Virus record (IMG/VR): IMGVR_UViG_3300033120_001068
Span: 1 to 64,000 of that record
From: a virus
Taxonomy: Duplodnaviria > Caudoviricetes
Length of the DNA: 64,000 nucleotides
Strand: one strand, 5' to 3'
How positions within the stretch are numbered: position 1 is the stretch's first letter; every line of letters begins with the position of its first letter. Positions 1 to 64,000 of this stretch are shown here, one piece after another. The notes beneath the pieces are model-generated. The model had not been told where the DNA came from. It worked only from the letters and a program-made list of their open reading frames with translations, and did no database searches. The translations under genes were made by a program, and so were the position numbers.

Positions 1-3
1 TCA

Positions 4-264
4 ATGTTCCTTGACTTTAAAGGAGATGGTCATTGTAAATCAGAAAAAATAAGAATTCCAGTTGGTTGTGAAAAAGCAGGAGAATATGTCTCAACTTGTA
101 TTTTCTTAAACCCTTCTTCTGCAATGATGGAAAAAAGAGACATTGAAAACAGACTACTTTTTGACTCACCAATCAAGCCAGATATTCCAAAATTTCCTGA
201 GGACAGAATAGAAAAAGGAGAAACTGGTTATAGTCAGTGTAAGGGTAAAAGAAAGTTCTTGTAA
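4..264 (+). CDS. hypothetical protein (may be 5'-truncated by window edge)
   Basis: ORF track; same strand as all neighbours; no motif recognised. Confidence 0.4.
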   Translation: MFLDFKGDGHCKSEKIRIPVGCEKAGEYVSTCIFLNPSSAMMEKRDIENRLLFDSPIKPDIPKFPEDRIEKGETGYSQCKGKRKFL

Positions 265-275
265 AAGTTTACCAG

Positions 276-830
276 ATGAGTAAAGAACTTAATGTCAAAA
301 TCAAACCAATAAGGAAAGGTTGGGTGATTGATTTATCTAAGATAGAGGAAGGATATTTGTATGAAGAAAAGACTGTTTCTACCAATACCATAAATGAGGC
401 AAAAACTAAATTACTTAATGAATTTAAATATGAGGGTTTAAGTGTATTAGGGGGTGAGGAATTAACTTATTTAAACATACCAGTTATAAGACATAAAGGG
501 TCAGATGTTTTTTTATTTGAAGGTAAAGAAAAGACTTTTTCTCAAATAACCAAACTACTTGAAGAAAAGGAGAGGGAGGAAGAATTAGACAAGATCTTAA
601 AAGACAATTCAATTAAATACTGTTATATCACAAAAAGAGGGTACCATTATAAATCAAACATGATGGGGTATACTGACTTTAGAATTTTTGCAGGAACTTA
701 CCTTAAAGAAATTGCAGTCAACCATGCCAAGTCAGTAAGAGAGGTTGTTCTTATTCCAATTGATATAGTTGAACATAATGAACTTATAAACAACCATATC
801 AATGAATTTAAATCAAGACTCTTAGAATAA
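276..830 (+). CDS. hypothetical phage protein
   Basis: 184-aa ORF; stop overlaps next ATG (TAATG coupling). Confidence 0.7.
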   Translation: MSKELNVKIKPIRKGWVIDLSKIEEGYLYEEKTVSTNTINEAKTKLLNEFKYEGLSVLGGEELTYLNIPVIRHKGSDVFLFEGKEKTFSQITKLLEEKEREEELDKILKDNSIKYCYITKRGYHYKSNMMGYTDFRIFAGTYLKEIAVNHAKSVREVVLIPIDIVEHNELINNHINEFKSRLLE

Positions 831-1063
831 TGGATTCACTTAAAAAAATAGAAATTGAGGAAGCAGAGATTATAGAAATCAAAGCCTTTGAGGTTTTGAA
901 AGAATTCTCTATCACCACCCCTTTAATCACAGTAACTTTCAGGAAAGGCTTAACTTTTCAAAGAGTTATTGATATGGAAGGAGATTATTTCAGTGAAGGT
1001 TTATATATTGTAAACCAAAGTGCCTTTGAGACCAATACAGAATATTTTAAACCAATTTATTAA
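830..1063 (+). CDS. hypothetical protein
   Basis: 77-aa ORF translationally coupled to the upstream gene. Confidence 0.6.
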   Translation: MDSLKKIEIEEAEIIEIKAFEVLKEFSITTPLITVTFRKGLTFQRVIDMEGDYFSEGLYIVNQSAFETNTEYFKPIY

Positions 1064-1155
1064 AGAGAGGTAAAAGAAGAAATTTAAAGTCAACTTGAAA
1101 AAAACAATTAAATTACTTAACTTTAAATTCTATTTATTCAAATAAAGGAACAGTT

Positions 1156-1506
1156 ATGAAAAACAAAATTATTAATGAAGAAGTAAAAGAGATGATTGGT
1201 GAGGTGTTGAAAGAGCCACTAAGTCAGATTTTACAATTCTTGAAAAAGGAGGCAGGAAATGCTATTGCAAGATTGGTGACAAAGAAAGATGGTAAATTGT
1301 TCCTTCCTTGGAGAAACAGGCAAGACAAACAAATTGTAGAACTTAAATCTGAGATTGTTAAACTTAACCAAAAACTATCAGTACTTTGTGAGTCAGTTGA
1401 TAAAGCTTTTCATTCCACCAACAAAGAAATAGAAGATTTCTGTAAAGAATGTCTTGAAGGAGAGGAGGAAGTAATTTTGGAACAAGAAGAACAAGACAGT
1501 CAATAA
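1156..1506 (+). CDS. hypothetical protein (coiled coil, acidic C-terminus)
   Basis: 116-aa ORF preceded by TAACTTTA at 1118-1125. Confidence 0.65.
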   Translation: MKNKIINEEVKEMIGEVLKEPLSQILQFLKKEAGNAIARLVTKKDGKLFLPWRNRQDKQIVELKSEIVKLNQKLSVLCESVDKAFHSTNKEIEDFCKECLEGEEEVILEQEEQDSQ

Positions 1507-1566
1507 TATTAAAAAGTCCTTAACAGGCGAGTTCTTAAAATACTTTTAATAGTAATATTTGTATTT

Positions 1567-1600
1567 ATCCCTTAATTTAAATTGTGTTAAGGGATTTTTA
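1567..1600 (+). terminator. probable intrinsic terminator
   Basis: ATCCCTTAA / TTAAGGGAT inverted repeat followed by a T-run. Confidence 0.6.
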
Positions 1601-1674
1601 TTTTCCTCCTTGGTGATATATTCGCAAAAAAGGAGGATTAGAAATATTTATCAAAATTTAATTAAATTTACAAA

Positions 1675-2181: not shown

Positions 2182-2189
2182 TTGCATTT

Positions 2190-2837: not shown

Positions 2838-2868
2838 CTTCCTTTAAAATAATTATATTTAGTTCTAT

Positions 2869-4485
2869 ATGTTAAATGAAATCCAATCTATTGAGCAACT
2901 CAATGAATATAAGCAAAAACTTACCATTCAAGAAGGCTTGATGGTTAAAAAGGCATTTGAGAGTAGTGATATAAATGAAATATACAAGGCACAAAGATAC
3001 CTTGCTTCAAAAATTACTCAGAAGGATGACTCAGAAGGGAGAGCAATGTTATTTGACCCTTTGGAAATCACAAGATCTCAAGGATATAGAAACAAGAGAT
3101 TTTCGGTTTCTTATGATATGTTGAGGGCAATGGGAAAAACTGATATTGTTAAAGCAATCATTGAAACCAGAAAAGACCAAGTAAAAGCATTCTGTACTCC
3201 TCAGCCTGATAAATATTCTACTGGTTTCATTATTCAAAAGAAGTCTAAATTTCAGTTAAACAAGGAAGAAAAGAAATTATCAAAACAAGAAGAAGAAAAA
3301 ATAGAATACATTACCAACTTTATTCTTGATTGTGGAAATAATGAGAACTTCTGGGATGGAGATAATTTTGATATTTTTATAGGAAAAATAGTTAGTGATT
3401 CTTTGACATTAGATCAAGCAACTTTTGAAATAATTAGAAATAAAAAAGGGGAAGTGACTCAGTTCTTTGCAACAGATGGAGCAACTTTTAGAATTGCAGA
3501 TTCCTATCAGGATGACGATGCACAGAATGAGAAATTTATAAAAGGGTATCCACCAAGTTATGTCCAGATGTATCAAGGAAAAATAATTTCTGAATACTAT
3601 CCTTGGGAACTTGCTTTTTGTATCAGAAACCCTCAAACTGATATTAGACTAAATGGTTATGGAGTATCAGAATTAGAGGATATGATACAAACAGTGACTG
3701 CTATTCTAAATGCAGGTACTTACAACTCAAACTTCTTTAAAGTTGGTTCGGCACCAAAAGGAATCTTGAAATATACTGGAAACATAAATCCTTCAACCGT
3801 TGAAGATTTTAGAAGGCAATGGACTCAGCAACTTTCAGGAGTTCAAGGGATGCACAAAATCCCTATTATAAATGCAGACAAGTTAGACTTTATAAATACT
3901 CATGTTTCTAATAAAGACATGGAATATATGAAATATGTAGAATTCTTGATAAAGATTTGTTGTGCCATTTATAAAATTGACCCTTCTGAAATAAACTTTC
4001 CAATGGGAGGCTCAGGAGATGCTAAACCAATGTTTGAAGGAAACAATGAAGCAAGACTAAAACATTCAAAAGATAAAGGGTTGAGACCCTTGTTAAAGTC
4101 AATTGAGTCTTGGATAAATAAATGGTTGATTTCTCAGATAGACAAGGATTATGAATTTAGATTTGTAGGTATTGAAAGTGAGAAAGGTGAAAAAGATGAC
4201 TTAGATCTTGATATACAAAAACTATCCAACTTCCAAACTGTTAATGAGATTAGAAAGAAAAGAAACTTGAAAGATGTAGAGGGAGGAGATGTAATTTTAA
4301 ACCCTACTTTTGTTCAAGCAAAAATGCAAGAACAAATGGCAATGATGGGAGGCGGACAAGGAGGAGAAGAAAATGGAATGTTTGATGACCAAGAAGGGAA
4401 TGCAGGAGGTTCTGGTGAGGAAGGAGATGATAGTGAAGAAAATCCATTCTTGAAGGCATTATTAGAAGATAAAAGTTTACTTTAA
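2869..4485 (+). CDS. portal protein
   Basis: Portal-like motifs (DSLTLDQATFEI, YGVSELE, NSNFFKVGSAPKGIL, IDPSEINF, LRPLLKSIESWINK, TVNEIRK); acidic tail; start of the head module. Confidence 0.9.
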   Translation: MLNEIQSIEQLNEYKQKLTIQEGLMVKKAFESSDINEIYKAQRYLASKITQKDDSEGRAMLFDPLEITRSQGYRNKRFSVSYDMLRAMGKTDIVKAIIETRKDQVKAFCTPQPDKYSTGFIIQKKSKFQLNKEEKKLSKQEEEKIEYITNFILDCGNNENFWDGDNFDIFIGKIVSDSLTLDQATFEIIRNKKGEVTQFFATDGATFRIADSYQDDDAQNEKFIKGYPPSYVQMYQGKIISEYYPWELAFCIRNPQTDIRLNGYGVSELEDMIQTVTAILNAGTYNSNFFKVGSAPKGILKYTGNINPSTVEDFRRQWTQQLSGVQGMHKIPIINADKLDFINTHVSNKDMEYMKYVEFLIKICCAIYKIDPSEINFPMGGSGDAKPMFEGNNEARLKHSKDKGLRPLLKSIESWINKWLISQIDKDYEFRFVGIESEKGEKDDLDLDIQKLSNFQTVNEIRKKRNLKDVEGGDVILNPTFVQAKMQEQMAMMGGGQGGEENGMFDDQEGNAGGSGEEGDDSEENPFLKALLEDKSLL

Positions 4486-4497
4486 AAATAATTAGTT

Positions 4498-5704: not shown

Positions 5705-5738
5705 ATTATTAACTTTATAGTACATAAAATTAGCAATA

Positions 5739-6479: not shown

Positions 6480-6480
6480 A

Positions 6481-6894: not shown

Positions 6895-6986
6895 AAACCA
6901 TTGAACAACTGGAAAAAAGACTTATTGAGAAACACAATTTAAAAACTTTATTTTTATCTGAACATAAAAATAATATTTCTTTAGAT

Positions 6987-7238: not shown

Positions 7239-7244
7239 TCTAAA

Positions 7245-8405: not shown

Positions 8406-8426
8406 ACTTCATATCTTAAAAAAGAA

Positions 8427-8648: not shown

Positions 8649-8660
8649 AATAAATCGAAT

Positions 8661-10082
8661 ATGAAAGCAGTTTATTCTTATTGGGAAGACTTTGAAATCA
8701 AACTAAATGGAGGCTTCAGGAGTGCTAAGGAAATGGCACTTGTCTTAACACTTTCAGTTATTGAAAGTAAAAAACAATTTTCTTCAGTTGAGTTTTACAC
8801 CACAGAATATGGAAAAAAGATAGTTGAGGATTACCAGATACCTTTTGATAAAGTCTATACCATACTTGATGACTTAACAGATAAAATAGGACTTAATCCT
8901 CAATTCTGGGCTTTTGCTAAAATTTATGTCTATTCCTTGCAAACTGTTCCTTTCATTCATATAGACAATGATGTAATAATCTGGGGTAAACTGCCTGAAA
9001 ATATTCTAAACTCAAAGGTTTTCTTTCAAAATAAGGAACACCTATCAACTCACCAAGGATATACACCAATTTTAAAGTTTGCAAAAGAGAACCTTCCTAA
9101 TGATATTCATGAAGAATTGAAAGAAGTTATAGACACCAAGGTTGACTGGGCTTATAATTGTGGAGTGGTTGGAGGCAATGATTTTTCTTTATTTAAGAAA
9201 TGGAGAGAAATAGTTGAGTCATACATTTTCAATAATGAATTAAACTACTGGGAAAAAGTTAAGGATAAGCATTCACAGAATCACTTTTTTGAGCAATACT
9301 TTATCTCCTCTTTGATAAAAATAACCAACACCACTGCTTCAACTTTATTGAGGGATGATTTTATGAAGTCAGCAACAAGAGATTTTAGATATACTCATTT
9401 ATGGGGAGAAGTTAAAAGAGATCCAAAAATAATCAATAAAGTAAAAGAAAGACTTTATCTTGACTATCCTGAGGTTCAGGAAAGGTTTGAAAAGGAATTG
9501 AGTGACTCAGAGGTCTTTACTGATATTTACCGTAATGAATTATGGGGGAAGGGTGCAGGTTCAGGAGGAGGAAGTTCTATTGAAATAACAGAAGGGTATA
9601 GACAGTTTTTACAAGATTTCTTGAAAGAAAATAAAGTAAAGACAGTAGTAGATTTTGGTTCAGGGGATTGGCAATTTTCAAAACTAATCAATTGGTCAGG
9701 AATTAAATATCTTGGAATTGATTGTGTAGAGGCGGTGGTTAAGAAATGCACAAAACAGCATGGTAAGAAGAATATAAAGTTTCTTTATGCAGATTCATTA
9801 AATGAACTTAAAGAAACCAAGTATGACTTACTTTTACTGAAAGATGTTATAATCCACTGGCCTAATGAAAAGATATCTTCATTCTTCAAGGAAATGAAAG
9901 AAAAAGAACAATTTTCTTATATTCTTGTAACTGTTCAGTCAAATGAAGAAAAAGTAAATGAAGATATAAAAGTAGGGGAATTTCATAATCTTGATTTACA
10001 GAAAGAACCTTTTTTATTGGATTGTGAGGTTTCATATAGATGGGATAATGATAAAAAAACAACTTATCTTTTTAAATTGTAA
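8661..10082 (+). CDS. glycosyltransferase-like (DUF6734-like, DxD) fused to class I SAM-dependent methyltransferase
   Basis: N-half HIDNDV, YNCGVVGG, FEQ and THLWG; C-half VVDFGSGDW, YLGIDCV and LLKDVIIHW. Confidence 0.7.
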   Translation: MKAVYSYWEDFEIKLNGGFRSAKEMALVLTLSVIESKKQFSSVEFYTTEYGKKIVEDYQIPFDKVYTILDDLTDKIGLNPQFWAFAKIYVYSLQTVPFIHIDNDVIIWGKLPENILNSKVFFQNKEHLSTHQGYTPILKFAKENLPNDIHEELKEVIDTKVDWAYNCGVVGGNDFSLFKKWREIVESYIFNNELNYWEKVKDKHSQNHFFEQYFISSLIKITNTTASTLLRDDFMKSATRDFRYTHLWGEVKRDPKIINKVKERLYLDYPEVQERFEKELSDSEVFTDIYRNELWGKGAGSGGGSSIEITEGYRQFLQDFLKENKVKTVVDFGSGDWQFSKLINWSGIKYLGIDCVEAVVKKCTKQHGKKNIKFLYADSLNELKETKYDLLLLKDVIIHWPNEKISSFFKEMKEKEQFSYILVTVQSNEEKVNEDIKVGEFHNLDLQKEPFLLDCEVSYRWDNDKKTTYLFKL

Positions 10083-19031: not shown

Positions 19032-19085
19032 TAATTGCTATTTAAAAATCGAAAATCGTGAAGAAAAAAAATAAAGAAAATTAAC

Positions 19086-20561
19086 ATGATAACGTTAAAC
19101 GATTACAACGTCGAAGCAGGTTTTCTTGGAGGTTCTGCAGAAGGGTCACTTGAATTACAGAAAGCAATGCAAGCCGGCCAGATAACTGGTAGAGACACAA
19201 CTGGTCAGATGCTGACTCAAGAGCCTTTAAAGGCTGAATCTTTGGAAACTACTCTTAAACTATTAGAGTTTAGAACAAAGGATGTAAAATTATGGAATGC
19301 CATTCCAAAACTTACTGCTTATAATACAGTAGAAGAGTTCTTGCAACTTTCAAGTTATGGTACACAAAGAGGAGGATTTTATAATGAAGGGGAACTTTCT
19401 GATGTAGAGGATTCTCAATACATTCGTAGATCTGAGAAAGTAAAATATATGCAGGTGACTGGAGAAGTTACAATGCAGGCTCAGATGGTTCGTAGTTTTG
19501 TAGATGCAATGAGAAAAGAAACTGAGAACAAGATGATGTGGATTCTTAGACTTGTTAATACTTCATTGACAAAAGCAGATGAAGATATAGTTCCTCAGGA
19601 ATTTAACTCACTTTACAAACAACATGCTTCTATTGGAGTTACACAAGAATTCTTGTATGCAACTTTTGAAGAATACTACAACTCAACTTCTGTTATTGAC
19701 CTTAGAGGTGCTACATTGACTCAAGATGATGTTGAAACTTCTTCTGTTAATATAGATGCTAACTATGGTTCACCAGACACTTTATTTGCTCCTACAACTG
19801 TAATTTCAGCACTTGCAAAAGATTACTACCAAGACCAAAGAATCTTGATGGATGGTAGAGGATTTGAAGGTACACTTGGAGTTGTTCCAAAAGCAATTTC
19901 AACTACACTTGGTGATATTGCTTTAATGTCTGATAAATTCATGAAAGCAGATCCTTCAAAATTACTTTCTACTCCTGCAACCTCAGTAAAAGCACCAACA
20001 GCACCTGCAAGTGTTACAGTTGCTTTAGCATTAGATGGTTTATCAAAATATAAAACTGGAGAACTTGGAGATGTCTTTTATGCAGTAAGTACACTTAACC
20101 GTAATGGTGAGTCAAATTTGACTGTCTACACAACTCCAGTTACTCTTGCAGCAGGATACAGAGCAGACATTACACCAATTTTAGGAACAGGCCCTAACAG
20201 TCCTTCTGGTTATGTTGTTTATAGAACAAAAGTAACTCTTGCATCTACTCCAACAGGATTGGAATTTTTTCCAATCTTCAAAGTAAGTTTAGCACAAGTT
20301 AACTCAGGCTATAATGGTTCAAGTTCTGGTGCTATTGGGGATAGAGGTTATTTCTTGCCTGATACAGAACAATGCTTCCAAACTCAAATGGATGAAGAAG
20401 TTTTAAGTTTCAAACAATTGGCTCCAATGTCTAAACTTGATTTAGCAGTATTGTCAATGAGTAGAAGATTTATCACTTTCTTATTTGGAACTCCTCAATT
20501 ATATACTCCTAAGAAATTTGTTAGGTTTATAAATGTAGGAAAGGTTTACAAAAAATCTTAA
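19086..20561 (+). CDS. major capsid protein
   Basis: PLKAESLETTLK and EEFLQLSSYG...GGFYNEGEL resemble Herelleviridae-type capsid; predicted maturation site LQK26|A27; followed by a strong terminator. Confidence 0.92.
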   Translation: MITLNDYNVEAGFLGGSAEGSLELQKAMQAGQITGRDTTGQMLTQEPLKAESLETTLKLLEFRTKDVKLWNAIPKLTAYNTVEEFLQLSSYGTQRGGFYNEGELSDVEDSQYIRRSEKVKYMQVTGEVTMQAQMVRSFVDAMRKETENKMMWILRLVNTSLTKADEDIVPQEFNSLYKQHASIGVTQEFLYATFEEYYNSTSVIDLRGATLTQDDVETSSVNIDANYGSPDTLFAPTTVISALAKDYYQDQRILMDGRGFEGTLGVVPKAISTTLGDIALMSDKFMKADPSKLLSTPATSVKAPTAPASVTVALALDGLSKYKTGELGDVFYAVSTLNRNGESNLTVYTTPVTLAAGYRADITPILGTGPNSPSGYVVYRTKVTLASTPTGLEFFPIFKVSLAQVNSGYNGSSSGAIGDRGYFLPDTEQCFQTQMDEEVLSFKQLAPMSKLDLAVLSMSRRFITFLFGTPQLYTPKKFVRFINVGKVYKKS

Positions 20562-24787: not shown

Positions 24788-24838
24788 TATTAACTAAAAT
24801 AGAAGAAAAATTATTATTTTTAAGATAATAAAACGAAT

Positions 24839-41185: not shown

Positions 41186-41219
41186 AACTTAATTAACTAA
41201 TTACCTTAATAAAGAATTC

Positions 41220-50452: not shown

Positions 50453-50518
50453 TTTTATTTAAAATAGTTTTATTTAAAAAAATAAACCTTATATTTAAAA
50501 GGTTATTAAAAAAATCGT

Positions 50519-53500
50519 ATGTTAGAAATTGAGGAATTATTTCTCTCTTGGTGCCAGGAGAATTTAATTAAATTTGAAAAATTAGAAGAAAATATTTTCA
50601 ATATTCCAAGTTTTGGTAAAATATATTTAGTAGGTAAAGACAGAAATGAAAGAGACAGTACATTAGATACTTCTATGAACTTACTTTTGACTGACTTTGA
50701 GTATGAGGATATTGATAAAAAAGATCCTGATTATTTAGTTTATAAGTTTGGAGATAGATTTTATTACACCGAAACTGTTCAATCTCAAAAATTAATTCCC
50801 TTTTTATATGTAGGCGAACCAGATTTAGTTTTTGGTCCTATTGATTTTCCTTATCTTGGTATTCATTCAGGATTTGAACTTCTTTCAGGAAGTAGAAGAT
50901 ATAAGGATTATGTCCAAAAAATAAAATGGTTAGGCAGTACAATGGCAGGAGTTTGTGAAGAAAATACTCTTTCAGGAGTTATTTCTTTTCAAGAACAATG
51001 TGAGAAAAAGGGAATAAAATCAATTATTGGTGAAACTCTTTCTTTTTCATTAGTTGGTGATGAAATTAATAAAATTAAGTTCTATGTAAAAAATAAAGAA
51101 GGATGGACCAATTTACTTAAAATTCATAGACTTGCAACTACTGTAAATAAATTTATTTTATACAAAAAAGATTTAGACTATGACTTACTAAAAGGATTAA
51201 TAGTTGTAATTACACCAAGTATTGAATGTAGTTTAAGAACTATTTATAACCATTTCATAAAGGTCTTAAACCATAATGATACTTATTTTCAATTAGATTT
51301 TACAGAATGGACTTCACAAGATAGAGAAACTGCTTCCTTGTCAATTTTACAAGAATATATCTTGAATAAAGAAAACATTAAGTCAGTTCTTATAAATGAT
51401 TATTACTACTTAGAAAAAGGAGATTCTCATATAAAGAAAAAACTTGAATTTATAGGAGGAGGTGCTTTTAATTATTCTTCTAATGACCAATATTTAAAAA
51501 GTATTGACCAATATATTTTAGAACCTTTAGAATTAATAGAAAATGAAGAGTTTGTCTATTCTTTAATTGTAGATGCTTTGACCAATACAATTGATGCTTT
51601 TAAAGACATTGATTTTAATATTTTGACAAAAAAATTCTACTTACCAAAATTTCCAGTTGAGGGAAATGATACACCTGAAAGTTTACTTCTTGGTTATATA
51701 AGAAAAGGGATGCAAGAGAAAGTTGAGCCTTATAAAACAAGTACACAATTAGTTGAGTATTGGGAAAGAGTAGAAAGAGAATTTGATGTAATAAGTAGGG
51801 GTGGTTTTATTGATTATTTTCTTATCTTAATTGACTTATATCAATTTGCAGACAGAGAAGGAATATGGTATGGTATTGGAAGAGGGTCTTCTGCAGGATG
51901 TTTAATATCTTATTTAACTGGCATTGTAGGTGTAGATCCTATAAAGTATGACTTGTTCTTTGAAAGGTTCTTGAATGAAGGGAGACTTGGTAAATCTTTG
52001 CCTGATATTGATACTGATTGGCAAGGAAGTAGAAGAGAAGAAATAAAAAAATATTTAGAACATAAATATGGAAGTGACCAAGTAATAGGAATTGGTACTT
52101 ATGGTACATTTAGACTAAGAAATGCTTTTAGAGATGTAGCAAGAGCAAGTGGTATTGATATTGCAACTATAAATTTGGTTTCAAAGAATCTTCCTGATAC
52201 TGGTCAAAGGCAAGGAAGAGACCATTTTTATTGGGAACTTTTTCAATATTGCAGTTCAAGTATATTTTATGCTTTTTTACAGAAGTATCCTAATGTCTTA
52301 GAAGATATTTATCTGGTTTTAATGCAACCAAAAAATGCTTCAACTCATGCAGCAGGGGTGGTAATTACTCCAATAGAATTTGGAAAATCTTATGAGCAAC
52401 TCCCCGTAAAACTCATGGATGGTCAACCAGTATCAGAATGGGAGGGAGTTTTTGTAGATGAGGCAGGGTTTTTAAAAATAGATATTTTAGGAATTAAGCA
52501 ATTAGATAAACTTGCAGACATTTCTAAAATGATATTTGAGAGATATTCAAAAAATATAACTTTTAATGATATTGAGTTAGATGACCTTGAAGTATTTGAA
52601 AAGTTTAAGGGAGGATGGAATGAAGATGTCTTCCAATTGCAAGGAGTTGGTTTAAAAGGGTATTCAAAAGATCTTCAGCCTGATAACATTGAAGATATTA
52701 TAGCAACTGTTGCTTTATATAGACCAGGACCAATAGAAAGTGGCTCACATTTGAAGTATATTAAAAGAAAAAATGGAATTGAAGACATTGAGTTTTATCC
52801 AGGTATTGAAGAAATAACTAAAAGAACCTATGGTCTTGTGGTTTATCAAGAGCAAGTTATGCAGATATGCCAAAAACTTGCAGATTTCACATTAGTGGAA
52901 GCAGATGATATTAGAAAAGCAATGGGTAAGATGAAACCTGAGTTAGTTAGTGAGTACAAAATTATTTTCATGAAAAGAGTTAAAGAAAATGGTTATTCTG
53001 AAATTCTAATGGAAAGATTATGGGAGGAAATGGCAGCCTTTGCTAAATATGCCTTTAACCGTTCTCATGCTGTCTGTTATGCAATTACGGGGTATTATTG
53101 TCAATGGTTTAAAGTTTATTATCCATTAGAATTTTGGACCATTTCTTTACAGTATTCAAATGATGATGAAAGACCAAGTAGATTAACAGAAATTTATAAA
53201 ACTTCTACTATTAAAATAAAATCAGTTGATATTAATTATAGTTCAGTAGGGTTTAGGTCTGAGGTTAAAACAAATACTATTTACTGGTCCTTGGTGTCTG
53301 TTAAGTTTGTGGGAGAGAAAGTAGTTGAAGGTATTTTTGAAGAAAGAGAAAAAGGAGGATTATTTTATTCTTTTGAAGAATTTTTAAGTAGAATAAAAAA
53401 ATATTCCTCAGTAAATAAGAGAGCAATAACAAACCTTATAATCTGTGGAGCTTTTGATGAAATTGAAAAAATAAATGAACCTCAGGAAAGGTTTAGATTG

Positions 53501-53971
53501 TTTGACCAATTACATGGGAATGAAATAAAAGAAGATTTAAAGGAACTTAGGCTTTCAGACAACCACACCTGGGCTTTAAAAGAATATGATTTAACAGGAT
53601 TTGGTTTCTTTGACTTTGAAAAATTAATAGTAAAATCAACTTTATTCTCTAAAATTTCTTCTTATAAAACTAATCAAGAAATTCTTGAAAATGAAGAATT
53701 TATAGAACAACTAACTCATGTCTTGGTTGCAGGGTTATTAGTTGGTTTTGTTGAAAGGGAATCTAAAAATGGTAAGTTTTGTGAACTTCAATTAAGAGAC
53801 AATACTGACTTACTTTACATCACTGTATGGTCTGATTTTTATGATACAGAAATAATGAATGAAAAAAACATAGGAAAAACCATACTTTTTTATGGTCAAG
53901 TTACTTATGATACTTATAAAAAAAGCAATGTACTGCACAGTTGTAAAAAAACAAAAATTGACTTAATATGA
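50519..53971 (+). CDS. dnaE: DNA polymerase III alpha subunit (family C)
   Basis: GRGSSAG, DLFFERFLN, LPDIDTD, THAAGVVI, KIDILG, LYRPGP, YQEQVM and FNRSHA motifs; C-terminal OB fold. Confidence 0.96.
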   Translation: MLEIEELFLSWCQENLIKFEKLEENIFNIPSFGKIYLVGKDRNERDSTLDTSMNLLLTDFEYEDIDKKDPDYLVYKFGDRFYYTETVQSQKLIPFLYVGEPDLVFGPIDFPYLGIHSGFELLSGSRRYKDYVQKIKWLGSTMAGVCEENTLSGVISFQEQCEKKGIKSIIGETLSFSLVGDEINKIKFYVKNKEGWTNLLKIHRLATTVNKFILYKKDLDYDLLKGLIVVITPSIECSLRTIYNHFIKVLNHNDTYFQLDFTEWTSQDRETASLSILQEYILNKENIKSVLINDYYYLEKGDSHIKKKLEFIGGGAFNYSSNDQYLKSIDQYILEPLELIENEEFVYSLIVDALTNTIDAFKDIDFNILTKKFYLPKFPVEGNDTPESLLLGYIRKGMQEKVEPYKTSTQLVEYWERVEREFDVISRGGFIDYFLILIDLYQFADREGIWYGIGRGSSAGCLISYLTGIVGVDPIKYDLFFERFLNEGRLGKSLPDIDTDWQGSRREEIKKYLEHKYGSDQVIGIGTYGTFRLRNAFRDVARASGIDIATINLVSKNLPDTGQRQGRDHFYWELFQYCSSSIFYAFLQKYPNVLEDIYLVLMQPKNASTHAAGVVITPIEFGKSYEQLPVKLMDGQPVSEWEGVFVDEAGFLKIDILGIKQLDKLADISKMIFERYSKNITFNDIELDDLEVFEKFKGGWNEDVFQLQGVGLKGYSKDLQPDNIEDIIATVALYRPGPIESGSHLKYIKRKNGIEDIEFYPGIEEITKRTYGLVVYQEQVMQICQKLADFTLVEADDIRKAMGKMKPELVSEYKIIFMKRVKENGYSEILMERLWEEMAAFAKYAFNRSHAVCYAITGYYCQWFKVYYPLEFWTISLQYSNDDERPSRLTEIYKTSTIKIKSVDINYSSVGFRSEVKTNTIYWSLVSVKFVGEKVVEGIFEEREKGGLFYSFEEFLSRIKKYSSVNKRAITNLIICGAFDEIEKINEPQERFRLFDQLHGNEIKEDLKELRLSDNHTWALKEYDLTGFGFFDFEKLIVKSTLFSKISSYKTNQEILENEEFIEQLTHVLVAGLLVGFVERESKNGKFCELQLRDNTDLLYITVWSDFYDTEIMNEKNIGKTILFYGQVTYDTYKKSNVLHSCKKTKIDLI

Positions 53972-56470: not shown

Positions 56471-56476
56471 TATATT

Positions 56477-57241
56477 ATGCCTAAAACATTAATAAGTAGT
56501 GAAAGTGCTACACATCCAATCCCTGAAGGATATAAAGAAGGAAAACTTATGATTTCTGAACTCTTCATTGATACAATACAAGGGGAAGGAAGGACAATTG
56601 GATTCCCTTGTATCTTCATAAGATTTACAGGATGTACTTTAAATTGTAGTTGGTGTGATACCACAGAAGTATGGAGAAAAGGACTTTACTACACTTTTGA
56701 AGATTTATTTACTATGCTTGAAATAAGTGGAACAATTGGTAAGTTGAAAACTGGTCAACACTTAATTTTAACAGGAGGTAGTCCTTTAAAACAACAAAAA
56801 AGTATAGTAGAATTTTTGATGCAATTTATTTCTAAATATGGTTTTAAACCTTTTATAGAAGTAGAAAATGAGTGTGTTTTAATGCCTTCAAGACACTTGA
56901 TTTCTTTGGTTGACCAATGGAATAATTCTCCAAAATTAGCTAATTCAAACATGAAAGTTAAAGCAAGAATGAAACCTGATATAATCTTAGCAACTGCTTT
57001 ACTTCCAAACTCATGGTTTAAGTTTGTTGTTTATTGTCAAGAAGACTGGAATGAAATACTTTCTGATTTTGTTGAAACCGGACTTGTAACCATGGATCAA
57101 ATAATACTTATGCCTCTTGGAATAAATCAAGAAGAGTTAAGTAAATCAAGAGAATTCGTTGTAAATTTATGTACTGAAAATTCAGTACTTTTTTCTGATA
57201 GGTTGCATATAACAATATGGGACAAAAAAACTGGTGTATAA
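56477..57241 (+). CDS. queE: 7-carboxy-7-deazaguanine synthase (radical SAM)
   Basis: TIQGEG...IRFTGCTLNCSWCDT (CxxxCxxC), TGGSP, SPKL and RLHI..W. Confidence 0.93.
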   Translation: MPKTLISSESATHPIPEGYKEGKLMISELFIDTIQGEGRTIGFPCIFIRFTGCTLNCSWCDTTEVWRKGLYYTFEDLFTMLEISGTIGKLKTGQHLILTGGSPLKQQKSIVEFLMQFISKYGFKPFIEVENECVLMPSRHLISLVDQWNNSPKLANSNMKVKARMKPDIILATALLPNSWFKFVVYCQEDWNEILSDFVETGLVTMDQIILMPLGINQEELSKSREFVVNLCTENSVLFSDRLHITIWDKKTGV

Positions 57242-57471
57242 TGAAAAACTTAGAAGTAGAATTAAAAGAATTGGTATTAGATACTGCTAATGCAACCCTT
57301 ATTATTTCAGTAAATAAAGAAGGGAAATGGTATGCAACCATTGGAGATAAAGGAGCAAGAGTGGAAGAAGAGGGTTTAAAACAACTTGTCCCTTCAATAA
57401 TTTCTTATTTAAAAGAAAATAGAAAAGTTAAAGAACCTACAAAAAGATCACTTAAAAACTTTACATTGTAA
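57241..57471 (+). CDS. hypothetical protein
   Basis: Probable start MKNLEVE, coupled to the queE stop. Confidence 0.5.
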   Translation: MKNLEVELKELVLDTANATLIISVNKEGKWYATIGDKGARVEEEGLKQLVPSIISYLKENRKVKEPTKRSLKNFTL

Positions 57472-57474
57472 CGT

Positions 57475-57924
57475 ATGTATGAATCAACTAAATTTTTTAA
57501 AGGGTACTCATGTGCTATCAGACAATGGAGAGCAAGTCATTCTCATTGCCAATTGGTGCATGGATATTCTTTTTATTTTCAAATAACTTTTTCTCCTATA
57601 AATGGAAAGTTAGACGAAATGAATTGGGTTCAGGATTTTGGTTCTTTTAAAAGAAATGGTCTTAAAGAATGGTTAGATGAAATGTTTGACCACACCACTT
57701 TAATTGAAAAAGATGACCCTTACCTTGAATGGTTTCAATGGGCAGATTCTGAAAAGATTTTAAAGTTAGTTATACTTGACCAGATGGGTGCAGAATCAGT
57801 AGCTAAACTTGTTTTTGATAAGTTCAATGAAAGACTTAGTTTAATTGAGGGAGGAAGAGTTGAAGTTGTCAAAGTAGAATGTTTTGAAAATGAAAATAAT
57901 TCAGGAATTTATAAAAAACAGTGA
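57475..57924 (+). CDS. queD: 6-carboxy-5,6,7,8-tetrahydropterin synthase
   Basis: HSHCQLVHGY, DFG, FDHT, GAE and ENENN. Confidence 0.9.
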   Translation: MYESTKFFKGYSCAIRQWRASHSHCQLVHGYSFYFQITFSPINGKLDEMNWVQDFGSFKRNGLKEWLDEMFDHTTLIEKDDPYLEWFQWADSEKILKLVILDQMGAESVAKLVFDKFNERLSLIEGGRVEVVKVECFENENNSGIYKKQ

Positions 57925-58275
57925 ATGAAAAAAGAAGAACAAATAAGTAGACTTAATCAATTGGATAAAGATACAATTGAGTTGATAAAAACTAAATCTG
58001 AGGATTATGCAAAGGATATAGATGTTCTTTCAAACTTCAAAATAGTTTCAAAACTGATTGAGTTAATTGGAGTTGATGTCACCAAACCAGAAGGGTATGC
58101 AATGTTAATGGTACTTTTAAAAATAGTAAGAATTTGGAACTTAAAATCAGCAAATAAAATTCCAAACAATGAGTCACTTTTAGATTCTTATAAAGATCTA
58201 ATAAATTATGCTAAATTATCATTACTTAACGAAATAGAATCTAATAAAAATGTCACTACAGAAAACAAAAACTAA
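57925..58275 (+). CDS. DUF1599-like nucleotide-modification-associated all-alpha protein
   Basis: KSEDYA..SNF...LK..R...ESLLDSYKDLINYA pattern. Confidence 0.55.
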   Translation: MKKEEQISRLNQLDKDTIELIKTKSEDYAKDIDVLSNFKIVSKLIELIGVDVTKPEGYAMLMVLLKIVRIWNLKSANKIPNNESLLDSYKDLINYAKLSLLNEIESNKNVTTENKN

Positions 58276-58921
58276 TCCTGAATTAGGGAAAAAAGTTGAA
58301 AAATACTTAAAAGAAAAAGGAGTCCAAACTCCCATGTCCAATTTTGAAATCTTGGATGAAGAAAAAAAAGAAATAATAGAAGACAGTTTTAGAAAGATAA
58401 TGCAAGTTTTAGGACTTGATTTATCAGATGATTCTTTAGAAGACAGTCCTAAAAGAGTTTCAAAAATGTATGTAGATGAAATATTTTGGGGATTAAATCC
58501 TTCAAACTTTCCTAAATGTACTGCAATTGACAACAAGATGAATGTAGATGAGATGGTCATAGAAAGAAACATAAATGTCCAAAGCAACTGCGAACACCAT
58601 TTTGTTATAATAGATGGCACTTGTGATGTAGCATATATCCCAAAAAACAAAGTTTTAGGATTATCAAAAATGAATAGGATAGTTGAATATTTTTCAAAAA
58701 GGCCTCAAGTTCAAGAAAGACTTACAAGTCAAATTTTTCATACCTTATGTTTCATTTTGGAAACAGAAGACGTAGCAGTTAGAATAAAGGCTCAGCACTT
58801 TTGTGTTAAGTCAAGAGGAGTTGAGGATACTGGTTCAGACACAGTCACTTCAAAGTTGGGAGGTTCTTTTAAAAATGAGCCTGAATGTAGATCTGAATTT
58901 TTCTCACTTCTTAACAAATAA
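58250..58921 (+). CDS. folE: GTP cyclohydrolase I
   Basis: SNCEHHF, GLSKMNRIV..FSKRPQVQERLT and HFCVKSRGV. Confidence 0.96.
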   Translation: MSLQKTKTNPELGKKVEKYLKEKGVQTPMSNFEILDEEKKEIIEDSFRKIMQVLGLDLSDDSLEDSPKRVSKMYVDEIFWGLNPSNFPKCTAIDNKMNVDEMVIERNINVQSNCEHHFVIIDGTCDVAYIPKNKVLGLSKMNRIVEYFSKRPQVQERLTSQIFHTLCFILETEDVAVRIKAQHFCVKSRGVEDTGSDTVTSKLGGSFKNEPECRSEFFSLLNK

Positions 58922-58923
58922 GA

Positions 58924-59343
58924 ATGCCAAAAGTAACTCATGTTAAAAGTTGCAATAAAACTATTTTTTTTATCAATTCAAAAGGAGAAGAAAAAGTTTT
59001 AGTTGAAAAAGGGAAAGAATATTGGTGGTGGAAATTTAGAAATTTTCCAAGACAAGTTTCTTCAACAAAACCTAAACCAAGAGATGTAAGACATCCTAAT
59101 AAATCTACTTGGGATCTTGATATTCAAAAGTACCAAGAAGAAGTCAATGATTTAGAAGAATGTCTTGATTTAGAACTTATTGAGAACTTGATTTCTGAAT
59201 TAGAAGAACAAGTTGAAACTATGCAAGATTCTTTATCTAATATGCCTGAGCAATTACAAGAATCAAGTATTCTTAATGAAAGAATAGAAGAACTGCAAGA
59301 ATTTATTTCCACTTTGGAAGGAATTGATTTAGAAGAAAGATAA
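58924..59343 (+). CDS. hypothetical protein
   Basis: Basic N-half (KGKEYWWWKF), acidic coiled-coil C-half. Confidence 0.65.
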   Translation: MPKVTHVKSCNKTIFFINSKGEEKVLVEKGKEYWWWKFRNFPRQVSSTKPKPRDVRHPNKSTWDLDIQKYQEEVNDLEECLDLELIENLISELEEQVETMQDSLSNMPEQLQESSILNERIEELQEFISTLEGIDLEER

Positions 59344-59350
59344 ATTAAAA

Positions 59351-59635
59351 ATGGAAACTACCGTTGACGAATACCAAAATAAAGTGACCTTAGTAAAGAA
59401 ATATGTAAAAGGCCAAGAAGATTTATATTTATTAGCCAAACTTACTGAGGAAGCAGGCGAGGTTGCAAAAGAAATAAGAAGGAAAGTAGAAGGAATAGAT
59501 ACTTGTAAAGATCTTACAAGTGAGTTGGGAGATTTACTTTGGTGTATCACTGCAATAGCAGAAAGAAATGACATTGCAATGAGCAAAGTTATTGAAGCTA
59601 ACCTTGAAAAATTAAAACAAAGAGGCTTATTATGA
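59351..59635 (+). CDS. mazG: MazG-like nucleotide pyrophosphohydrolase
   Basis: LTEEAGEVAKEIRR...ELGDLLWCITAIA. Confidence 0.88.
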   Translation: METTVDEYQNKVTLVKKYVKGQEDLYLLAKLTEEAGEVAKEIRRKVEGIDTCKDLTSELGDLLWCITAIAERNDIAMSKVIEANLEKLKQRGLL

Positions 59636-60450
59636 AAATAGCTCATGAATCACCAACTTCTATTTTTAAAGAAGTTCAGAAACTTACAGACTATGACTAT
59701 TGTTTAGTTCACCTTTTAGAAGAAGATTCAAATTATTTAGAAAATTTTCTGTCTTCAAAAAAAGAAGGAAGGGAAATAATTTTAGATAATTCAATTTTTG
59801 AATTAGGAGTAGCATTTGATTCCAAAAGTTTTTCTAAATGGGTTGAAAAATTAAGACCTGACTGGTATATTGTTCCAGATGTTTTAGAAAATTGTTATTC
59901 AACTGTCTTGAATTATCATAGTTTTATAAGAGAATATCCTGATTTGCCAGGCAAGAAAATAGGAGTTTTACAAGGGAAGACTTATGAACAACTTTTATAT
60001 TGCTATGTTAATCTGGTTGATCTTGGAGTTGATAAGATAGCAATTTCTTTTGACTACTCTTATTATGTTGATTTATATCCCAATGAAAACAAGTTAGTTT
60101 CTTGGTGTGAAGGTAGAAAGATGTTCATTGATAAAATAATAGAAGATGTAAGATTTGACTCCTCCATTCCAATACATTTATTAGGATGCTCACTACCTCA
60201 AGAATTTAATCATTATAGAAATAATGAAATTATTGAAAGTATGGATTCTTCTAATCCAGTAGTTTGTGGTTTATATGGAATAGAATATAATGGTTTGCAA
60301 GGATTACAAGAAAAGCCTTCTAAAAAACTTTTTGAATTGATTAGAGAAAAAGTAAATGAGGATTCTCTAAGTAAAGTAATAAAAAACATATTGACTTTTA
60401 AAAAAATAGTAAATGGGAAAACTAATATCAATCTCAGGAACTCATTGTAG
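59632..60450 (+). CDS. dpdA: DpdA/TGT-like 7-deazaguanine transglycosylase
   Basis: TGT-like barrel motifs ILDNS, VPDV, LQG, HLLG and SMDSS; embedded in the que cluster. Confidence 0.7.
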   Translation: MKIAHESPTSIFKEVQKLTDYDYCLVHLLEEDSNYLENFLSSKKEGREIILDNSIFELGVAFDSKSFSKWVEKLRPDWYIVPDVLENCYSTVLNYHSFIREYPDLPGKKIGVLQGKTYEQLLYCYVNLVDLGVDKIAISFDYSYYVDLYPNENKLVSWCEGRKMFIDKIIEDVRFDSSIPIHLLGCSLPQEFNHYRNNEIIESMDSSNPVVCGLYGIEYNGLQGLQEKPSKKLFELIREKVNEDSLSKVIKNILTFKKIVNGKTNINLRNSL

Positions 60451-61000
60451 TGGAAAAACTACTTTATTAAAAGAACTTGAAACTTCATATTCTGTAAATA
60501 GAAAAGATGAAGATTTTAAAGTTTTATTTGTTGACTCAGTAACAAGGAGTTTGAAGAAAAAAGGGTATCCAATCAATAATGAGGAAAGTTCTAATTATGA
60601 TGGTACTCAAATTGCTTGTCTTAAACAAGATTTAAGAAATATTCAAACTGCCTTTTTACTTGATGGAACCTATATTTTTGATAGAAGTTTACTTGATACT
60701 TTTGTTTATACAACTTATCTGTTTAGGCAAAAGAAAGTTTCAACTGAGGCTTATGAAGAAATTAAGTCCAGGTGGGAAGGAAATAAAAATTCTTTTGATG
60801 TAATCTTTCTTTTAAACCATACAGAAATCCCTTTTGATAATGATGGAGTCAGAAGTCCTAATTTACTTTTTAGAGAAGAAATTGCATTGATTTTTAAAGA
60901 AATTTTAGGAGAAAGCAACATAGTTCTTGAAATAGTTTCAGGAAGTAAAGAAATTAGATTATTAACAGTAATTAAAAAGATATGGAAAATAAATCAATAA
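60413..61000 (+). CDS. P-loop nucleotide (dNMP-type) kinase
   Basis: GTHCSGKTT, FDRSLLD and DGVR. Confidence 0.8.
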   Translation: MGKLISISGTHCSGKTTLLKELETSYSVNRKDEDFKVLFVDSVTRSLKKKGYPINNEESSNYDGTQIACLKQDLRNIQTAFLLDGTYIFDRSLLDTFVYTTYLFRQKKVSTEAYEEIKSRWEGNKNSFDVIFLLNHTEIPFDNDGVRSPNLLFREEIALIFKEILGESNIVLEIVSGSKEIRLLTVIKKIWKINQ

Positions 61001-61929
61001 ATGACTTTGCATCTAAGTCACTTGGTAGTGAGAATAGTTATGCAATATACAGTGAGAAGTATGACCCTTCCTTACTTGTAAAAATGCCAAGATATTTGGC
61101 AAGGCAGGAAATAAAAGTTTCCAATTCTCCTTTTGGAGTTGATGTTTGGCATGGTTATGAATGTACTTTTTTATTGAATAATGGTTTACCAATTTCAGGA
61201 ATTCTAAAATTTGTCTATCCTTCAAGTAGTTTTTTTATGGTTGAGTCAAAATCTATGAAACTTTACTTGAATACTTTTGATATGTGTAAATTAGGAGAAG
61301 AGGAAGTTGAAGCAGTAGAAAATTATCTGCACCTTGTGGGGAGTCACTTAAGTGAATGTCTTGAAATTCTCCCTTCTTCTCTAATTTTAAGTTTCCATTC
61401 TGACTCTAATTTTATTTTGCCTAAACTTGATCTTAATTCTTTAATCAACTTAGAGTCTCTTGTTTCTAAAGATGATAAGTTTAATTATAGTGAACTTGTT
61501 GAAATAAATAATCACATTAAAACTCTTGAGATTAAAGAAGTAGAAGAAAGAACAAAAAATTGGACTTTTTATAAAACTAACATTCTAAGATCAAGATGTA
61601 GACACACTAAACAAAAAGACACAGGATATGGTTTCTTCTTTATAAAAACTTCTATTGATGTTACCATAGATCCATTATCTTTATTGAAGCAAGTATTAGC
61701 ATTAAGAGAAACAAATGAGTTTCATGAATTTTGCAGTGAAAAGTTATATACTGCAATAAAAGAGACAGAAGGAGTTGAGGAATGTTGTGTGGTATTAATG
61801 TATGTAAGAAGGGGAGGCTTGGATATTAATCCTATCAGATCTTCTTTACCTTTTAAAGACATCCCTCACCATTTACCTGAATATTTAAGTCTTGGTAAAT
61901 TTTTATTTGAAAGAACTTTTATTCAATAA
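60982..61929 (+). CDS. queF: preQ0 nitrile reductase, bimodular (YqcD-type)
   Basis: QueF signature ESKSMKLY; catalytic SRC..T.QKD; FHEFC; RRGGLDINP. Confidence 0.9.
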   Translation: MENKSINDFASKSLGSENSYAIYSEKYDPSLLVKMPRYLARQEIKVSNSPFGVDVWHGYECTFLLNNGLPISGILKFVYPSSSFFMVESKSMKLYLNTFDMCKLGEEEVEAVENYLHLVGSHLSECLEILPSSLILSFHSDSNFILPKLDLNSLINLESLVSKDDKFNYSELVEINNHIKTLEIKEVEERTKNWTFYKTNILRSRCRHTKQKDTGYGFFFIKTSIDVTIDPLSLLKQVLALRETNEFHEFCSEKLYTAIKETEGVEECCVVLMYVRRGGLDINPIRSSLPFKDIPHHLPEYLSLGKFLFERTFIQ

Positions 61930-61933
61930 ACAA

Positions 61934-61990
61934 TTATTTTATTTAAAATGCTTTTATTTAAATAAACTTTCATTATATTTATGCTATCAA
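61934..61990 (+). promoter_or_regulatory. repeated promoter cassette (copy 2)
   Basis: Palindrome TTTATTTAAATAAA (61953-61966) plus TATATTTA (61974-61981). Confidence 0.7.
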
Positions 61991-62010
61991 CTCAAACAAA
62001 AACACAAACC

Positions 62011-62433
62011 ATGGAATCACTTGAAATTAAGTCAGTTGTAGAAATGCAAATCATCATGGAAATGAGGCAGCATTTTACAGATGAAGACAGCATCAAAATC
62101 TTCAATTCTTTATGTCTAAGTCAAACTCATTTTCCAAACATATCTTTAGAAGAACTTTGGAAGAAAGAAAAATTGTTCTATTTAATTCACAAAGAATCTT
62201 CTATTCAATGCATAAGAATGGGGTTAAATATTTCAGGGTTATTTAGGGAAGACATCTTCCAGTCTTTTGAGAAAATTAAAAAAAGCATTTTATCTTCAAA
62301 AAATACTGAGCATTTAAAATCATGCAAGGAACTTCTTGTTCTTTTCAATGATAAATTTAGTTCTCATAAAGCCATTTCTACTTTTAATCTTGAGTTGGAT
62401 TTTTTATGGAATACAACTTACTATAACCTATAA
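62011..62433 (+). CDS. hypothetical protein
   Basis: The track ATG at 61981 lies inside the promoter cassette; ATG 62011 (AAACCATG) matches the 54539 context. Confidence 0.6.
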   Translation: MESLEIKSVVEMQIIMEMRQHFTDEDSIKIFNSLCLSQTHFPNISLEELWKKEKLFYLIHKESSIQCIRMGLNISGLFREDIFQSFEKIKKSILSSKNTEHLKSCKELLVLFNDKFSSHKAISTFNLELDFLWNTTYYNL

Positions 62434-62442
62434 ATCATAAAT

Positions 62443-63246
62443 ATGAAAAAAGCAATTCTTGCACTATCAGGAGGAATGGATTCAACCTGCCTTTTACTAA
62501 GATTACTTAGAGAGAATTTTGAAGTAACTTGTATTCTTTTTGACTATGGTCAAAAGCATAAAGTTGAATTGGAAAGGGCTCTTAGAAATATAAACCATTT
62601 GAAAAAAAATGAACTTCCTGTCTCTTATCATAAAGTAGATTTAAGTTTCATGTCTGACTTTGGTTCATCTTTGACTTCTTCTTCATGTAAAGTTCCAGAA
62701 GGGCATTATAGTGAAGATAACATGAAAAGCACAGTTGTCCCTAACAGGAATGCTATTTTTTCTTCCATAATATATGGATATGCACTTTCTTTATCAAACT
62801 CATGTAATAATGAGGAAGTAGTAATCTCACTAGGTATTCATTCAGGAGACCATGCTATTTATCCTGATTGTAGACCAGAATTTAGAGATTCACTTGAAAA
62901 AGCATTTAAACTAGGAAATTGGGGAGGAGATAAAGTTTCATACTACACTCCATTTATTGATTTTGACAAAACAATGATTTTAAGGAGTGCTATGGACTCA
63001 TGTGAGTATTTAGGCCTTTCATTTGATTTTATCTTAGGAAATACTTTAACTTCCTATAATCCTGATTCTCTTGGTCGTTCATCTGGAAAATCTGGTTCTG
63101 ATATTGAAAGAATTGAAGCATTTATGAACATTTCTAGAATAGACCCAATCCAATACCAAGAACCTTGGGAGGCAGTAAAGAAACATGCTCTTAAAATTTT
63201 AAATAAATTTAAAGATGAGGGAAATACCAATAAGTCAGGAAATTAG
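62443..63246 (+). CDS. queC: 7-cyano-7-deazaguanine synthase
   Basis: LSGGMDST, FDYGQKH, VPNRNAIF and YPDCRPEF. Confidence 0.94.
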   Translation: MKKAILALSGGMDSTCLLLRLLRENFEVTCILFDYGQKHKVELERALRNINHLKKNELPVSYHKVDLSFMSDFGSSLTSSSCKVPEGHYSEDNMKSTVVPNRNAIFSSIIYGYALSLSNSCNNEEVVISLGIHSGDHAIYPDCRPEFRDSLEKAFKLGNWGGDKVSYYTPFIDFDKTMILRSAMDSCEYLGLSFDFILGNTLTSYNPDSLGRSSGKSGSDIERIEAFMNISRIDPIQYQEPWEAVKKHALKILNKFKDEGNTNKSGN

Positions 63247-64000
63247 TCAATGTACAACTCTTAAAAAAAGTTATGAGTTGTGTTCTGAGATTCAGAAAAT
63301 GGTATTAACTTTACTTAAAGTAGATAGAAGGACAATTCCAAGAGAAGAACTCTCAAAGTTTAAAGGAAGATTAAGTCTTTATTCAAAACTTTATAATCAG
63401 GCTTATGATAAATATTTCTTGTTAAGACTAACTTGTCTTGAAGAAAAACCTTATGTAAAAGTACCAGAAGAATTTTCTGAACTTATAAAAGAATATAACT
63501 GGAAAAAAATAACTGGTAATTGTCTACCACTTAAAAAAACAAATTATTTAAAAACAGAATTAAACATTGAAAAAATTATGGCACAAAAATCTTTTTTTTA
63601 TCGAAATGACCCACAAGTAGTTGTGGACACACAAAGTTTAGACCTTGAAGTATTTTTAGAAAAATATTCAAGTCAAACAAAACAAGAAGTTTTAGAAAAA
63701 GTTTGGAAAGAAAACCAAAAAACTATTGAACAAAAAGTTAAAGATAGAGTTGGTGTTGAAAAAGAAACTGAGCCTTTGGTTGCAATTGCAGGGAAAGGAA
63801 AAACTTCTAAAAAGAAGGAAACAACCACAGTTGATGGAGTTAAAATAATTGCAGGGAAAACAGTTTATGAGGCTCCTGAAAGTGAAATAAAACAAGCCTT
63901 CAAGGAAATTGAAAAGCCTAAGTCAACTCAGAAAGAAGTTGAAAAGTCTGAATCTGAACCAACTAAAAAATTGGAAGAAGAAGTTGTTGAAGACTCAAAA
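63215..64000 (+). CDS. hypothetical protein, runs off the window edge
   Basis: MREIPISQE... translated by hand, open to position 64000; Lys/Glu-rich C-part. Confidence 0.65.
   Translation, partial: MREIPISQEISQCTTLKKSYELCSEIQKMVLTLLKVDRRTIPREELSKFKGRLSLYSKLYNQAYDKYFLLRLTCLEEKPYVKVPEEFSELIKEYNWKKITGNCLPLKKTNYLKTELNIEKIMAQKSFFYRNDPQVVVDTQSLDLEVFLEKYSSQTKQEVLEKVWKENQKTIEQKVKDRVGVEKETEPLVAIAGKGKTSKKKETTTVDGVKIIAGKTVYEAPESEIKQAFKEIEKPKSTQKEVEKSESEPTKKLEEEVVEDSK

Follow-up and report, generated by a model that had tools for sequence, protein, structure and literature searches.

The first 64,000 nucleotides of the IMG/VR virus record IMGVR_UViG_3300033120_001068 (Duplodnaviria; Caudoviricetes), hereafter called the window, raise the question of why a phage genome should be almost free of the dinucleotide CG. 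The window is the beginning of a linear record of 89,022 bp, which is 89% complete according to CheckV, has a G+C content of 30% and carries nearly every gene on the + strand. The record encodes an HK97-type portal protein, a large terminase, DnaE, a DnaB-like helicase, a primase, helicases of superfamilies 1 and 2 (SF1 and SF2), SbcCD-like proteins, ThyA and DHFR; the presence of its own DnaE, helicases, primase, ThyA and DHFR gives the gene set a lytic appearance. No integrase was found among 30 proteins scanned with Pfam, a scan which covered only part of the open reading frames (ORFs).

The window contains 129 CG, corresponding to an odds ratio (rho) of 0.092, and the whole record contains 197 (symmetrised odds ratio 0.10), where the base frequencies (fC 0.124 x fG 0.177) lead one to expect 21.9 CG per kb. 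A first-pass annotation made from the sequence had estimated this expectation at roughly 20 per kb, and its hand counts proved to be exact: positions 1-1527 are free of CG, the first one being found at 1528, and only five are present in each of two long genes:

2869-4485, + strand, portal gene (PF04860), with CG at 3104, 3516, 3749, 3798 and 4353; relatives across the clade were collected with it
50519-53971, + strand, dnaE, the gene of a DnaE-type DNA polymerase, with CG at 50770, 50815, 52405, 53060 and 53088

When the record is divided into 4-kb bins the odds ratio lies between 0.02 and 0.18 throughout, with the exception of the last kb (0.69).

The avoidance covers NCG codons and codon junctions and thus reaches beyond arginine usage, as the first-pass annotation had claimed. 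Only 32 of the 1016 arginine codons are CGN; NCG codons number 42, compared to about 508 expected from the use of G in the third position of the GTN, GGN and CTN four-fold boxes; and C|G at codon junctions occurs 102 times, compared to 569 ± 19 (minimum 511) in 500 within-gene shuffles of synonymous codons. Shuffles which preserve the codons therefore fail to explain the loss of CG. By codon phase the odds ratios are 0.07 and 0.08 within the codon and 0.15 at the junction. The substitutions used in place of CG are AGR for CGN, NCA or NCT for NCG, and T for C ahead of a codon starting with G. In the portal protein the conserved arginine positions are retained even though CGN codons are nearly gone, and this points to codon choice, and not to sequencing error, as the origin of the loss. 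An artefact of assembly or base calling caused by modified bases was considered and ruled out, since the reading frames are intact, conserved arginines sit on AGR codons, and independent contigs of other projects behave alike.

All 16 NCGN contexts are depleted (0.03-0.20), with CGCG being absent altogether, and the four CG palindromes are depleted no more than the non-palindromic CG contexts. On the coding strand the XCG words and their reverse-complement partners have similar values (ACG 0.11 and CGT 0.08; TCG 0.09 and CGA 0.12; CCG 0.19 and CGG 0.14; GCG 0.054 and CGC 0.052). Because all contexts are low and the partners are depleted alike, the reading of CG is double-stranded or context-free. 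The remark in the first-pass annotation that GC is common holds as far as the count is concerned, with 969 GC in the window, but GC is nevertheless under-represented (0.70). Arithmetic on the word counts places GC at 0.95 in contexts which are unable to create CG, and a joint avoidance of CG and GC steps, in which the guanines lie on opposite strands, was rejected on this ground; the GC deficit follows for the most part from the loss of CG together with the avoidance of AGCT and GGCC. The compensating excess is found in CC/GG (1.31) and AG/CT (1.20), and at the codon junctions in C followed by C (1.67) or by T (1.55), with T|G at 1.03.

Other avoided words and the residual CG

The phage also avoids a number of short palindromes. 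CTAG is present at 0.13 of the mononucleotide and 0.19 of the Markov expectation, AGCT at 0.24 and 0.47, and GATC at 0.40 and 0.45, respectively. Amongst the hexamers CATATG is absent against 11.3 copies expected under the Markov model (P 1e-5), and the same model expects 17.7 copies of CTATAG where one is found (P 4e-7), 20.2 of CTTAAG where five are found (P 6e-5) and 9.6 of GTATAC where one is found (P 7e-4). Across the whole record TGATCA does not occur and ACATGT occurs once. Which palindromes are avoided differs between the relatives described below, none of which shares the avoidance of AGCT. Strain-specific avoidance of restriction sites would give such variation between phages (PMC6286503). 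The likeness to the restriction-site avoidance of non-temperate double-stranded DNA phages (Rusinov et al., 2018; PMC6286503) lies both in the removal of short words by synonymous choices and in the 4- and 6-bp palindromes avoided here (CTAG, AGCT, GATC, CATATG, CTATAG, and CTTAAG); the difference is that the main avoided word of this phage is a bare dinucleotide in every context and not a full site.

The CG which remain are clustered (variance/mean 2.2, P < 0.0005), and two regions of the window stand out:

19046-19175, + strand, densest residual cluster in the window, with 2 CG in an A-rich leader (AAATCGAAAATCG) and 5 in the first ~90 nt of the gene that follows
38423-42380, + strand, two genes of the tail-fibre region with CG ratios of 0.23 and 0.44 (Poisson P 2e-3 and 1.5e-5)

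The 500-bp bin of the first cluster holds nine CG where the average rate of this genome would give 1.5, and the gene starting at 19087 we take, from its position and sequence, to be the putative major capsid gene. The raised CG of the two tail-fibre-region genes is as expected if these were recently exchanged host-range modules in which the purge is still incomplete. Further clusters are present at 83.5-84 kb and in the last kb of the record. This last stretch, which lies beyond the window (88001-89022), contains 15 CG, has an odds ratio of 0.69 and carries three small ORFs; four of the 15 fall within a gap of just 80 bp (88307-88386). A module acquired not long ago, a site of packaging or replication, and simply the end of the contig are all conceivable explanations.

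In seven genes a CG has been kept in an A-rich "TCGAA" leader directly 5' of the start codon, the pattern being AAAA(T)CG(A)A(N) followed by ATG:

8652-8663, + strand, leader of this kind with its CG
24830-24841, same arrangement, one CG
50512-50521, same arrangement, one CG
57468-57477, same arrangement, one CG
73606 of the record, same arrangement, one CG
79082 of the record, same arrangement, one CG
88013 of the record, same arrangement, one CG

The CG-bearing leader may represent an initiation or regulatory motif. A few other retained CG are located in the stems of hairpins.

Relatives and candidate hosts

Scanning IMG/VR with the single portal protein returned no match; scans based on an alignment of 35 portal homologues succeeded, and gave 22 IMG/VR loci and 80 metagenome loci. 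The CG statistics of the clade were computed on 88 portal-relative loci, each of at least 5 kb. The closest portal proteins are 77% and 64% identical and are encoded on Logan contigs of 18 and 80 kb, while the closest isolate is Chryseobacterium phage MA9V-3 (portal identity 58%). The 88 relatives range in CG from 0.15 to 1.40 (median 0.77, 5th percentile 0.33), the AT-rich ones being typically at ~0.5-0.6, and the phage lies below all of them. Low values are also found in several near relatives from independent metagenome contigs (L086 0.19, L064 0.24, L072 0.25, and L088 0.32). In a FastTree phylogeny of the portal protein the nearest subclade mixes CG-poor contigs (L086, L064, and L088, with L089 at 0.52) and normal contigs of the same portal identity (L081 and L087 at 0.85-0.96; L068 and L069 at 0.81-0.87). 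The CG trait thus changes over short evolutionary distances, and deep inheritance does not account for it. At codon junctions CG is at 0.15 in the phage and at 0.20-0.23 in L086 and L064, compared to 0.94-1.16 in L087, L069, and MA9V-3. One further portal relative (L108, contig JAAIGE0100939227.1) has an unusual signature, with CG at 0.36, GC at 0.39, and CC/GG at 1.34.

A Shine-Dalgarno core is present in only five out of 106 genes, and the leaders are rich in A, most of all at -11 to -13, which is the pattern of translation initiation that PMC6847099 associates with Bacteroidota. From these two features, and from a Chryseobacterium phage being the nearest isolate, we infer that the phage lineage infects Bacteroidota and that the host is of Flavobacteria type. 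Neither tRNA genes nor matches to Rfam families were found in the phage, so that no host clue could be gained from them, and there is no host signal in the bacterial FolE homologues at 63-68% identity, which come from Chlorobiales, cyanobacteria, and one Flavobacterium metagenome-assembled genome. Beyond the window, the thymidylate synthase (80216-81400 of the record) reaches 394 amino acids by means of a long insertion, with the Pfam model spanning 383 residues; related Bacteroidota phages have this insertion as well. Close by, at 82114-82728 of the record, there is a short DHFR-like gene.

As a proxy for the bias of potential hosts, counts of W4CGW4 were set against those of W4GCW4, the reversed control, in an even sample of 401 Bacteroidota genomes and in 301 Flavobacteriales genomes. 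It should be noted that this ratio is a rough proxy, as exemplified by one genome (G004) with a ratio of 0.28 but CG of 0.83-0.90, and the genomes with the lowest ratios were rechecked for true CG on 20-kb stretches. The ratio is 0.16 in the phage, compared to a minimum of 0.226 in the sample of the phylum; in the Flavobacteriales sample small genomes (1-2 Mb) of 26-33% GC reach 0.18-0.28. The lowest of these small AT-rich Flavobacteriales have a true CG of 0.32-0.54 and a junction CG of 0.44-0.79, and this host-lineage component was lacking from the list of causes in the first-pass annotation. The nearest overall signature is that of a Flavobacteriales genome (G403) of 1 Mb and 28% GC, with CG at 0.34, CC/GG at 1.27 and a delta* of 0.082. 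The bias of the phage is partly host-like, yet it exceeds that of every sampled genome 3-5 fold. Forni et al. (2024; PMC11282364) describe a tendency to low CpG in genomes of low GC and in the phages belonging to them, and the AT-rich relatives and candidate hosts, at 0.3-0.6, resemble this G+C- and host-dependent bias, whereas the phage is placed 3-5 fold under the trend and below every relative and genome sampled.

Three of the candidate host genomes (G419, G529, and G624; L171, L173, and L179) show values for CCGG of 0-0.08, for ACGT of 0.03-0.23 and for TCGA of 0.08-0.19, which go beyond the dinucleotide effect. The avoidance of these words over and above the general CG deficit suggests that small AT-rich Flavobacteriales have long been exposed to restriction-modification systems with CG-containing sites.

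Guanine modification and cytosine methylation

The window also carries the genes for a predicted modification of guanine, which the first-pass annotation had included among the possible causes in proposing that the modified base is poorly tolerated after C:

56477-63246, + strand, 7-deazaguanine module with queE, queD, DUF1599, folE, MazG-like ORF, dpdA, P-loop kinase, queF and queC
59351-59635, + strand, MazG-like ORF of 94 amino acids with an EEAGEVAKE motif, its 3' end overlapping the start of dpdA at 59632
59632-60450, + strand, DpdA3-type transglycosylase of 272 amino acids, without a Pfam match

Pfam matches in the module were obtained for FolE, PTPS, radical SAM, QueF, and QueC, and both dpdA and queF contain zero CG. 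The identity of the predicted 272-amino-acid protein in tblastn (53% to Flavobacterium phage immuto_2-6A and 38% to CP220) places it as a putative member of the DpdA3 subfamily, the tested members of which replace all guanines (PMC10516641). The phages phiST, immuto_2-6A, and CP220 (Hutinet et al., 2023; PMC10516641) share with it both the subfamily and the neighbourhood of MazG-like, DpdA, kinase, and QueF genes; the order of these is syntenic in immuto_2-6A, whose formyltransferase is lacking in this phage. Just upstream of the MazG-like ORF there is an ORF of 139 amino acids (58924-59343) to which no Pfam family was matched. In the greedy gene calls the MazG-like ORF had been displaced by an ORF on the minus strand (59329-59646), which was rejected as spurious and has a negligible effect on the counts.

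These three phages, in which 100% of G is replaced (base data from PMC10516641), have CG ratios of 0.65 (phiST, dDG), 0.47 (immuto_2-6A, fdPreQ1), and 0.72 (CP220, dADG), compared to 0.10 in the phage analysed here. Across 57 further IMG/VR loci with DpdA3 homologues CG ranges from 0.41 to 0.95, so that all of them lie above this phage, and the few loci with DpdA3 and QueF but without a formyltransferase match are at 0.41-0.57. Conversely, the only complete record of the portal clade (L080, with direct terminal repeats) has CG at 0.31 with no DpdA match, while the one record of the same clade with a distant DpdA match (L071) is at 0.85. Poor tolerance of the modified G after C is not supported by this distribution, and as judged from these genomes the CG loss is independent of a DpdA3/preQ1 modification. 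An effect on CG specific to dPreQ1 would be conceivable, but nothing supports it. Our literature search found no paper tying CpG loss to 7-deazaguanine, nor one tying it to Flavobacteria phages.

Methylation of cytosine followed by deamination is the textbook route of CpG loss, and the decay of 5-methylcytosine (5mC) had likewise been put forward. No match to PF00145 or PF01555 was detected in the record, and no methyltransferase (C5 or N4/N6) is present among the 30 phage proteins scanned with Pfam. TG/CA is at 1.05, where a regression over the 88 relatives predicts 1.18 at a CG of 0.10. The absence of a TG/CA excess, the pattern at the codon junctions and the milder depletion of non-coding DNA together argue against deamination as the main cause, the enzymes examined being those of the phage.

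Origin of the CG deficit

The CG deficit of this virus is real. The reading which we favour, while holding it tentatively, is that selection on the dinucleotide as such, in the DNA, maintains it, in two layers and driven by defence. The first layer would be the low-CG background of a Bacteroidota host lineage. In the second, selection on the phage DNA would push the depletion 3-5 fold further, to 0.10 overall and 0.15 at the junctions. Host DNA-targeting defences with short CG-containing recognition words would act as the driver, and dropping CG would be a cheap way for a genome of 30% GC to remove every such word at once. CG-containing defence targets are the most likely driver, with host defence as the presumed agent. 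Of the causes listed in the first-pass annotation, CG-containing restriction or methylation targets or a CG-sensing defence fit best, because the loss is synonymous, context-free, and alike on both strands, changes quickly between relatives, and is accompanied by the avoidance of other palindromes; the proposal is partly supported, and no agent is implicated.

Several points weigh against this reading. We know of no restriction enzyme which recognises bare CG, and the CG palindromes are not preferentially lost, so that no specific enzyme is implicated. If all the guanines are replaced, as they are in other DpdA3 phages, most enzymes which read G should already be blocked (PMC10516641) and the purge would be redundant. 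Were the host an unsampled one with a CG of about 0.1, there would be no need for the second layer at all. Finally, CG is at 0.62 in the 15 nt before gene starts and at 0.41 in other intergenic DNA, compared to 0.09 in coding DNA, although some of these "non-coding" CG fall in small ORFs absent from the gene calls. A model based purely on DNA targets accounts for this milder non-coding loss only by way of functional constraint, as in the leader motif and terminator stems.

An alternative is pure mimicry, in which the signature of the phage would be that of an unsampled host with CG of ~0.1, acquired through common mutation and repair biases and a common tRNA pool. It is in line with the tendency of phages to match the CpG content of their hosts reported in PMC11282364, with the signature match to G403 and with the low CG common to several related contigs. 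We nevertheless consider it unlikely, since none of the ~700 Bacteroidota genomes is below 0.18 in the W4 ratio and those with the lowest true CG keep far more CG at the codon junctions than the phage does. The difference between coding and non-coding DNA would, on the other hand, be accounted for if selection acted on mRNA or translation, with NCG and CGN codons poorly decoded, C|G codon pairs disfavoured, or a host RNase cutting at CG, and the ratios within codons, which are lower than at the junction, agree with this. Such selection appears a rather improbable main cause given that CG at the junctions is depleted 6-fold, which is beyond what tRNA supply would explain, that the contexts are alike on both strands, and that the densest cluster of CG lies in the first codons of the putative major capsid gene; moreover, the intergenic DNA of a genome with its genes on one strand is probably co-transcribed.

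A link to guanine modification would require that a preQ1-type base makes CpG steps structurally harmful or poor substrates for DpdA3. The phage has DpdA3, QueF, and QueC without the DpdN-like formyltransferase of most phages with DpdA3 and QueF, which possibly leaves a cationic aminomethyl group in place, and none of the other DpdA3 loci examined is as poor in CG. The much higher CG of the fully G-replaced phages and of the other loci devoid of formyltransferase, together with the contrast between the two portal-clade records with and without DpdA, makes this explanation improbable. Least probable is methylation decay, in which a CG-specific methyltransferase of host or phage would allow CG to be eroded by deamination of 5mC. 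A precedent exists in the CpG under-representation of Mycoplasma penetrans, linked to M.MpeI in work cited in PMC11282364, and the likeness to CpG loss of this M.MpeI or M.SssI type lies in a strong genome-wide loss in a genome of prokaryotic type; the phage differs in that no methyltransferase was found in the proteins and families searched, in that the compensating excess is in CC/GG and AG/CT and not in TG/CA, and in that the loss is stronger in coding than in non-coding DNA. A more speculative idea is that AT-rich planktonic Flavobacteriales, or their mobile elements, carry an undescribed reader of bare CG in double-stranded DNA which is not stopped by the replacement of guanine and which forces lytic phages to delete CG, or else that a CpG step bearing cationic dPreQ1 on each strand is itself intolerable; we regard this as rather unlikely.

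A selective ten-fold purge of CG, which is not explained by the sampled hosts, by base modification or by decay, suggests an agent that reads as few as two bases. As a host defence such an agent would act very broadly, and its existence would change the interpretation of composition-based matching of phages to their hosts. Should an extreme host bias be the sole cause, the phage would mark an unsampled lineage of Flavobacteriales with the lowest bacterial CpG of which we are aware.

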